This document shows positions 23,134-25,245 of a stretch of DNA of 64,000 nucleotides, one piece after another. The DNA comes from Eledone cirrhosa. Lineage: Eukaryota. Numbering within the stretch: the first letter of the stretch is position 1; the number at the start of each line of letters is the position of its first letter. Both the position numbers and the translations under genes were made by a program. The notes below the pieces were generated by a model. The model saw only the letters and a program-made list of their open reading frames with translations, was not told the DNA's origin and ran no database searches. The stretch covers positions 3,720,001 to 3,784,000 of the forward strand of contig OZ024766.1 of the NCBI GenBank assembly GCA_964016885.1. Reading direction: 5' to 3'.

Positions 23134-23175
23134 CTGGGCATCAGGTTTTTTAGTTTTGAAACTTCTATATGGGAA
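23134..23175 (-). CDS. Pka-C1: Candidate 42-nt in-frame cassette micro-exon FPYRSFKTKKPDAQ of PKA-C (GC donor)
   Basis: Acceptor ctgatttgtccctatttccag and donor CAG|gcaagt. Phase 0-0. Flanks are homologous to those of the 25213-25245 exon. Confidence 0.6.
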
Positions 23176-23527
23176 CTGGAAATAGGGACAAATCAGTTAG
23201 TATTGATACAATGTGTGTATAGATGTGTGTATATATAGATAGATGTGTGTATATATACATAAATGTGTGTGTATATATACATAAATGTGTGTATATATAT
23301 ATAGATGTGTGTATATATAGATAGATGTGTGTGTATATATAGATAGATGTGTGTGTATATATACATAAATGTGTGTATATATATATAAATGTGTGTATAT
23401 ATATATAGATGTGTGTATATATAGATAGATGTGTGTATATATAGATAGATGTGTGTGTATATATACATAAATGTGTGTATATATAGATAGATGTGTGTAT
23501 ATAGATGCATGTGTCTATAGATGTATG

Positions 23528-23569
<42 letters not shown>

Positions 23570-23849
23570 ATAGATGCATGTGTGTATATAGATGTGTATA
23601 AACAGATATGTGTATATACAGATATGTGTATATATACATATATGTGTATATATACATATATGTGTATATATACATATATGTGTATATATACAGATGTGTG
23701 TATATATCTATATATACATAGATATGTGTAGAGATGGGTGTATATATAAGTGTATATATATAGATATGTGTATATAAGTATATATATATGTATATATATA
23801 AGTGTGTATATATAAGTGTGTATATAAGTGTATATATAAGTGTGTATAT

Positions 23850-25196
23850 ATATCAAAGTGTATATAAGTATATATATATCAAAGTGTATATAAGTATATA
23901 TATCAATGTGTATATAAGTGTGTATATATAAGTGTGTATATATTAGTGTGTATATATTAGTGTGTATATATATCAATGTGTATATAAGTATATATATATC
24001 AATGTGTATATATCAGTATGTATATATTAGTGTGTATATATATCAAAGTGTATATAAGTATATATATATAAGTGTGTATATATATCAATGTGTATATATC
24101 AGTATGTATATATTAGTGTGTATATATATCAAAGTGTATATAAGTATATATATAAGTATGTATATATTAGTGTGTATATATATCAAAGTGTATATAAGTA
24201 TATGATGATGATGATATATTAATGTGTATATAAGTATATATATATATATCAATGTGTATATAAGTATATATATAAGTATGTATATATATCAAAGTGTATA
24301 TAAGTATATGATGATGATGATATATTAATGTGTATATAAGTATATATATAAGTATGTATATATATCAAAGTGTATATAAGTATATGATGATGATGATATA
24401 TTAATGTGTATATAAGTATATATATATCAATGTGTATATAAGTATATATATATCAATGTGTATATAAGTATATATATATCAATGTGTATATAAGTATATA
24501 TATATCAATGTGTATATAAGTATATATATATCAATGTGTATATAAGTATATATATATCAATGTGTATATAAGTATATATATATATATCAATGTGTATATA
24601 AGTATATATATATCAATGTGTATATAAGTATATATATATCAATGTGTATATAAGTATATATATATCAATGTGTATATAAGTATATATATATCAATGTGTA
24701 TATAAGTATATATATATCAATGTGTATATAAGTATATATATATCAATGTGTATATAAGTATATATATATCAATGTGTATATAAGTATATATATATCAATG
24801 TGTATATAAGTATATATATATCAATGTGTATATAAGTATATATATATCAATGTGTATATAAGTATATATATATCAATGTGTATATAAGTATATATATATC
24901 AATGTGTATATAAGTATATATATATCAATGTGTATATAAGTATATATATATCAATGTGTATATAAGTATATATATATCAATGTGTATATAAGTATATATA
25001 TATCAATGTGTATATAAGTATATATATATCAATGTGTATATAAGTATATGATGATGATGATATATCAATGTGTATATAAGTATATATATATCAATGTGTA
25101 TATAAGTATATATATATCAATGTGTATATAAGTATATATATATCAATGTGTATATAAGTATATATATATCAATGTGTATATAAGTATATATATATC
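23850..25196. repeat. 28-bp AT-rich minisatellite
   Basis: Unit tatatcaatgtgtatataagtatatata. Confidence 0.88.
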
Positions 25197-25212
25197 CATG
25201 TTATTAACTTGC

Positions 25213-25245
25213 CTTGACTTCAGGTTTAGGTCTTGTATTTGGTAA
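25213..25245 (-). CDS. Pka-C1: Candidate 33-nt in-frame cassette micro-exon LPNTRPKPEVK of PKA-C (GC donor)
   Basis: Acceptor ctgatttatacctatttccag and donor AAG|gcaagt. Phase 0-0, open in the frame of exons 2 and 3. Lies in a unique island among microsatellites. Confidence 0.6.

Follow-up and report, generated by a model that had tools for sequence, protein, structure and literature searches.

The PKA catalytic-subunit (PKA-C) gene of Eledone cirrhosa lies on the minus strand of the window, the 64-kb stretch of DNA analysed here, and its 16.7-kb intron 2 houses two short elements, A and B, both of which a sequence-only reading had proposed as micro-exons. For B this proposal gains support: it is very probably a spliced exon, given that gene models of Octopus bimaculoides and O. 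sinensis contain an orthologous insert of 14 residues. Element A is a candidate whose use in splicing seems fairly probable. We give an even chance to a reading in which B is the main spliced micro-exon and A a weaker, minor cassette, each adding a basic loop or tag that would leave catalysis unchanged. In this reading, B would be recognised through a perfect branch point together with a GC donor that otherwise comes close to consensus, and A, with a degraded branch point and a weaker donor, would be used less, either with B or instead of it. The loop would sit at residues 36/37 of the N-tail, with selection acting on its length and charge over its exact sequence.

The PKA-C gene and the elements in its second intron

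The exons of PKA-C were placed by a protein-query search of the genome, an initial Pkinase scan having returned results without this locus, and all of them fall on a single contig. Within the window, on the minus strand, exon 2 (26119..26180, 62 nt) encodes the A-helix with its FxxxW motif, ends in phase 0 at a GT donor and matches O. bimaculoides isoform X5 at 20/20 residues. Exon 3 (9315..9443, 129 nt) starts in phase 0, carries the glycine-rich loop and is identical to X5 at 43/43 residues, as are exon 4 (3517..3615, 99 nt) at 33/33 and exon 5 (2409..2491, 83 nt) at 27/27. Because the translation of exons 2–9 is identical to X5 at 294/294 residues, the gene looks intact. Exons 9 and 10 match Octopus more closely than Sepia.

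Two first exons and a duplicated exon 6 lie beyond the window. The exon 6 copies are found just outside it (contig positions 3719194-3719334 and 3714892-3715035); one matches O. bimaculoides X1 and the other X2, where they are used alternately, and the pair presumably resembles the Aplysia A1/A2 cassettes. Of the two alternative first exons, the short one (contig position 3805491) is myristoylatable and agrees with O. bimaculoides X5 at 15/15 residues; the long one (contig 3844290-3844640) is expanded in poly-Gln and Gly-rich stretches when set against O. bimaculoides X1. Intron 3 contains a 188-codon open frame (window 5398-5964, minus strand), which we take to resemble the C-terminal part of a LINE reverse transcriptase. 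On the opposite strand, an intronic segment (window 52371-52430, plus strand) translates into a peptide similar to residues 1–20 of the O. sinensis model (65%), which suggests that the N-terminus of that model derives from repeat-like DNA.

Element A (25213..25245, minus strand) is 33 nt long and encodes 11 residues with a net charge of +2; element B (23134..23175, minus strand) is 42 nt long and encodes 14 residues with a net charge of +3. The coordinates, lengths, frames, peptides and donors given in the sequence-only reading were reproduced, and both elements are, as it stated, multiples of three and free of stops in the phase-0 frame of the exon 2/3 junction. Its description of the peptides as Pro-rich suits A (Pro at 3/11 positions) and not especially B (2/14). 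B combines an acceptor and a donor with an open frame, a length divisible by three and a size within the 51 nt allowed for micro-exons (PMC13149111, in its available part), and A has the length, frame and splice dinucleotides of a coding micro-exon.

The two elements are preceded by CAG and followed by GCAAGTT. The common acceptor and donor on which the earlier reading built are confirmed: the acceptors (25246..25280 for A, 23176..23210 for B, both on the minus strand) are identical at 31/35 positions and the donors (25205..25212 and 23126..23133, likewise on the minus strand) at 7/8. Within the bodies, 23/33 positions are identical with one 9-nt gap and 26/33 with two gaps. Both donors read AG/GCAAGT, and they match what we take to be the U1-pairing consensus at 7/11 (A) and 9/11 (B) positions. 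GC donors are enriched in alternative exons. GC-AG junctions are rare, amounting to ~0.83% of junctions in one mouse data set (PMC13149111, available part). The donor context AG/G[TC]AAG was found in A and B only, among the 43 in-frame micro-exon candidates listed for the 16.7-kb intron.

The acceptor of B contains a perfect TACTAAC branch point (A at -22, position 23197). In A this heptamer is altered at two places, leaving a CTRAY motif (A at -18), and one of the two changes creates an upstream in-frame AG. A thus has a second in-frame acceptor 21 nt upstream (start 25266), from which a 54-nt exon would be possible. The surroundings are repetitive. Between exon 2 and A, the 873-nt intron consists largely of a TA/CA microsatellite (25281..26037), and a satellite spacer of 26/52-nt and 20/42/62-nt TA/CA-rich arrays (23211..25204) fills the 2037-nt intron between A and B. 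The earlier description of the elements as unique islands in microsatellite needs a small correction: B is followed by ~90 nt of unique sequence, not by microsatellite.

We looked genome-wide for the dispersed repeat that the earlier reading had named as one possible refutation of its proposal, and this refutation fails: there are two copies, both in intron 2. AGGCAAGT occurs twice in the 64-kb window, both times at the A and B elements. The 35-place pattern of the shared acceptor has two matches in the 3.0-Gb genome, both here, and its reversed control has none; a genome DNA search with B plus its flanks, which skips simple repeats, returned B and A only. Since they are found only here in 3.0 Gb, A and B are, on sequence grounds, a local tandem duplication of a lineage-restricted micro-exon and not a dispersed repeat. 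The proposed exon duplication with retention of frame stands as well, the two being tandem homologs of the same phase with lengths that are multiples of three. The Eledone cirrhosa genome thus holds a second copy of the insert element beside B. A dispersed repeat is present elsewhere in the window, in many copies (1740-1900 on the minus strand; another copy at, for example, 29011-29170).

Element B and the insert of Octopus models

In O. bimaculoides XP_014777148.1, FPYKLSKGKRPNFQ is inserted at the exon 2/3 junction. A 14-residue insert occupies this junction in 4/4 Octopus models, namely O. bimaculoides X1, X2 and X5 and O. sinensis (XP_014777146.1, XP_014777148.1, XP_014777151.1 and XP_036355164.1; O. 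bimaculoides X3 and X4 are outside this set). The inserts are known from gene models, the ortholog of B being already present in automatic annotations. The exon 3 protein search gave 1204 matches among 1207 candidates, of which the best 120 were listed; the cluster of XP_014777148.1 has four members, all with the insert. No skipped Octopus form was found among the cluster members listed (15 of 50 and 15 of 30 in the large clusters).

The Octopus insert finds its top match in B among 127,912 six-frame windows of 14 residues (score 39; next 31). The two peptides are identical at 7/14 positions (shuffle p 1e-5 in 200,000), and Octopus has a basic residue at each of the four positions that are basic in B, though half of the residues differ. 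B and the Octopus insert agree in gene, junction, length and basic character; the latter is of a single type, with no A-like form among the four models, as against two elements here. Compared in this way, the insert peptide changes fast while keeping its length, position and charge.

This agreement bears on the idea that neither element is spliced in Eledone cirrhosa and that both stem from a repeat or resemble exons by chance. In its favour, a chance match over 14 residues scores 31 in the dispersed repeat at window 1810. However, the elements have only two copies genome-wide, and B shares with the Octopus insert its length, its junction and half of its residues, so we consider this explanation very improbable. 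An origin of B from the repeat at 1810 itself was rejected: the resemblance is a chance one, and the repeat is a many-copy element that was not among the matches of the genome search with B.

How often B would be included is a separate matter. The insert is present in 4/4 Octopus models, which span three different N-termini and both exon-6 forms; B may accordingly be the predominant form, perhaps a constitutive one. A less probable, though serious, alternative to a main B with a minor A takes this further: B would be a constitutive or near-constitutive octopod exon encoding a tolerated linker, A a dead duplicate and pseudo-exon, and there would be no isoform switch. The Octopus models favour its first part, against which stand both Sepia models, which lack the insert, and the snails, where both forms are annotated and which offer a precedent for optional use. 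Among the cephalopod models compared, the insert is present in 4/4 from Octopus and absent from 2/2 from Sepia, and no species has both forms; one of the Sepia models is also recorded from Logan contigs. At its exon 6/7 junction, the Sepia pharaonis model has four residues twice, which probably reflects faulty annotation.

The wider variability of the junction was assessed on 313 fetched proteins, of which 102 without one of two anchor motifs (mostly fragments) were dropped. In the 211 measured, the spacing from the Trp to the glycine loop was standard in 197, longer by 14 residues in four (Octopus), by five in nine and by ten in one, counts that refer to isoforms, not species, and are biased to top hits. 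The +5 form occurs in the freshwater snails Physella and Biomphalaria, both of which also have models that lack the insert, and the +10 form in one Elysia chlorotica model, at the exon 2/3 junction; both are unrelated in sequence to the Octopus insert. The snail insert is probably of independent origin, and the heterobranch gastropod inserts represent a possible parallel micro-exon. In Physella acuta and Biomphalaria glabrata the five residues share the position of A and B, and both forms are annotated; unlike A and B, the insert is single, unrelated in sequence and not basic-rich. With both forms on record in each snail, variation at this position extends beyond octopods, and the exon 2/3 site tolerates optional loops. 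The sequence-only reading had regarded this position as not known to vary in PKA-C; it is indeed unusual in print, but +14, +5 and +10 forms exist in the databases.

Other searches were negative within their scope. A protein-fragment search for the insert gave 13 matches from 15 candidates, none with the insert among those examined, and metagenome scans with the acceptor pattern and the exon-2 pattern yielded 0 matches each. A sequencing-run search with window 23050-23215 listed no RNA run, and the ESM Atlas, queried with the insert region, returned unnamed plant clusters only.

Element A and the mode of splicing

Element A retains CAG, AG/GCAAGT, the frame and freedom from stops, and its deletion relative to B is a multiple of three. 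In a simulation of neutral decay, which assumes 1/3 for frame retention, all of these features were kept with a probability of 0.154, 0.081, 0.048 and 0.016 at 6, 11, 15 and 23% divergence, respectively. Positions in the splice signals are more alike than those in the exon bodies (38/42 versus 23/33, Fisher p 0.035), a contrast that weakens when two gaps are allowed (bodies 26/33) and part of which constraint on B alone could yield. In the 10 aligned codons, 7/7 substitutions are non-synonymous (neutral expectation 0.8 each, p 0.21); since none of the seven is silent, the A and B peptides are, by this comparison, under no purifying selection.

These observations also weigh on the possibility that A is dead beside a constitutive B. 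The intact splice cores, the in-frame deletion and the missing stop codons speak against a dead A. Its degraded branch point and its absence from protein records speak for it: no A-like insert was found in any of the 313 fetched proteins, 6 named cephalopod proteins among them. With 4/35 acceptor differences, moreover, a dead copy may be so young that it still appears intact (p up to 0.15). The duplicated unit may also simply have been short; similar CA/TA satellite lies upstream of both copies, and therefore the limits of the islands need not reflect selection.

If both elements are used, they could be alternatives to each other. Regulated mutual exclusion of A and B as a tandem-duplicate pair, for example neural versus non-neural, we consider quite unlikely. 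They are adjacent homologous exons of the same phase, and exon 6 of the same gene is duplicated and alternates between O. bimaculoides X1 and X2. Against this, we searched for a steric block and found none, the A–B intron measuring 2037 nt with branch points 18-22 nt from the acceptors, and found no frame incompatibility either, as A plus B (33+42 = 75 nt) would be included without penalty. With the frame kept by the sum and 2 kb between the copies, nothing in steric spacing or frame forces mutual exclusion, as far as the sequence tells. Typical tandem duplicated exon substitutions, as described in the accessible part of PMC9741552 and including exon 6 here, resemble A and B in being adjacent homologous exons of one phase, but the typical cases are old and conserved and substitute for a portion of the protein, whereas A and B are lineage-restricted, fast-changing additions.

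Neural micro-exons that depend on eMIC/Srrm are characterised by a UGC near the acceptor, along with a strong branch point and a long AG exclusion zone (PMC8797185, available part). A and B resemble these exons in being short and frame-preserving. B also shares the strong branch point, which it has alone of the two, and the AG-free zone, which extends over 339 nt upstream of B and over 21 nt upstream of A. However, the zone of B sits in AG-poor satellite, the whole A–B intron containing 4 AG in 2037 nt, and in contrast to the eMIC-dependent exons there is no UGC near either acceptor (0 TGC within 60 nt upstream of A or B).

A more ambitious scheme would have octopods choosing by tissue among none, A, B and A+B at the linker between A-helix and core, with a GC-donor-gated polybasic loop retargeting PKA in neurons, in parallel to the snail insert; we regard it as unlikely. 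Should splicing prove to be regulated, it would offer a simple way, open to testing, into PKA targeting in animals that serve research on learning. The pair is also a small case study of a new micro-exon duplicating and then surviving or decaying.

The insert in the context of PKA-C structure and isoforms

According to Soberg et al. (PMC3625193, available part), residues 16-350 of PKA-C are of equal length in nearly all bilaterians, with single-residue exceptions only, and isoform variety is confined to 5' exons. Decapod isoforms likewise differ only N-terminally (PMC12608923), and those of mussels by 5' exons (PMC13425070), in the accessible portions of these papers. The human Cbeta exons a, b and c, placed upstream (5') of exon 2 by the earlier reading, are reported there in PMC6143667. 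Like A and B, these PRKACB exons are short, optional, in-frame exons of a PKA-C gene (PMC3625193, PMC6143667), but they change the N-terminus, whereas A and B follow exon 2 and lie inside residues 16-350. Octopods thus break a near-fixed length with a basic 14-residue loop, half of whose positions have changed while the flanking exons have not. We found no published description of the insert in the literature searched, most subscription papers being outside it. The comparison covered the accessible parts of PMC13425070, PMC12608923, PMC2724707, PMC13281805, PMC9741552 and bioRxiv 10.64898/2026.09.05.749416; in these parts, no mention of prkac was found in PMC13281805, nor of PKA in the main text of the bioRxiv preprint.

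By alignment to solved PKA structures, the insert follows residue 36 and precedes residue 37, in the part of the N-tail that lies beyond the A-helix. This tail is wrapped around the core, and the outer face of the helix is the docking site of AKIP1 (PMC3415842, available part). In a model of O. bimaculoides X5, the helix at residues 12-32 is kept and pLDDT falls below 50 at residues 39-50 (mean 70.1), the insert being represented by one row of the 35-row alignment; compared with PKA structures, the model has a TM of 0.75 and an rmsd of ~12.8. The control model without the insert reached a mean pLDDT of 40.4, too poor for comparison with the insert model, so the two models say nothing about the effect of the loop. 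The loop is probably unstructured. That charge and length are kept while the sequence is free points to a flexible basic loop. Such a loop, basic, fast-evolving and exposed at the surface, could serve as a localisation or partner tag, for instance by favouring acidic binding partners, without effect on catalysis, a function we put forward tentatively, with a merely tolerated linker as the main alternative.

In the PKA structure, residue 36 and the myristate presumably lie at opposite ends of the A-helix, and the insert also occurs with a non-myristoylated N-terminus. On both counts, a myristoyl-plus-basic membrane switch (PMC6143667, available part) was ranked lower. The classical monopartite NLS motif is K[KR]x[KR]; this motif, a PKA site and PxxP are absent from A, B and the Octopus insert (0/3 peptides). 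Element B contains two PKC-type sites that are absent from the Octopus insert.
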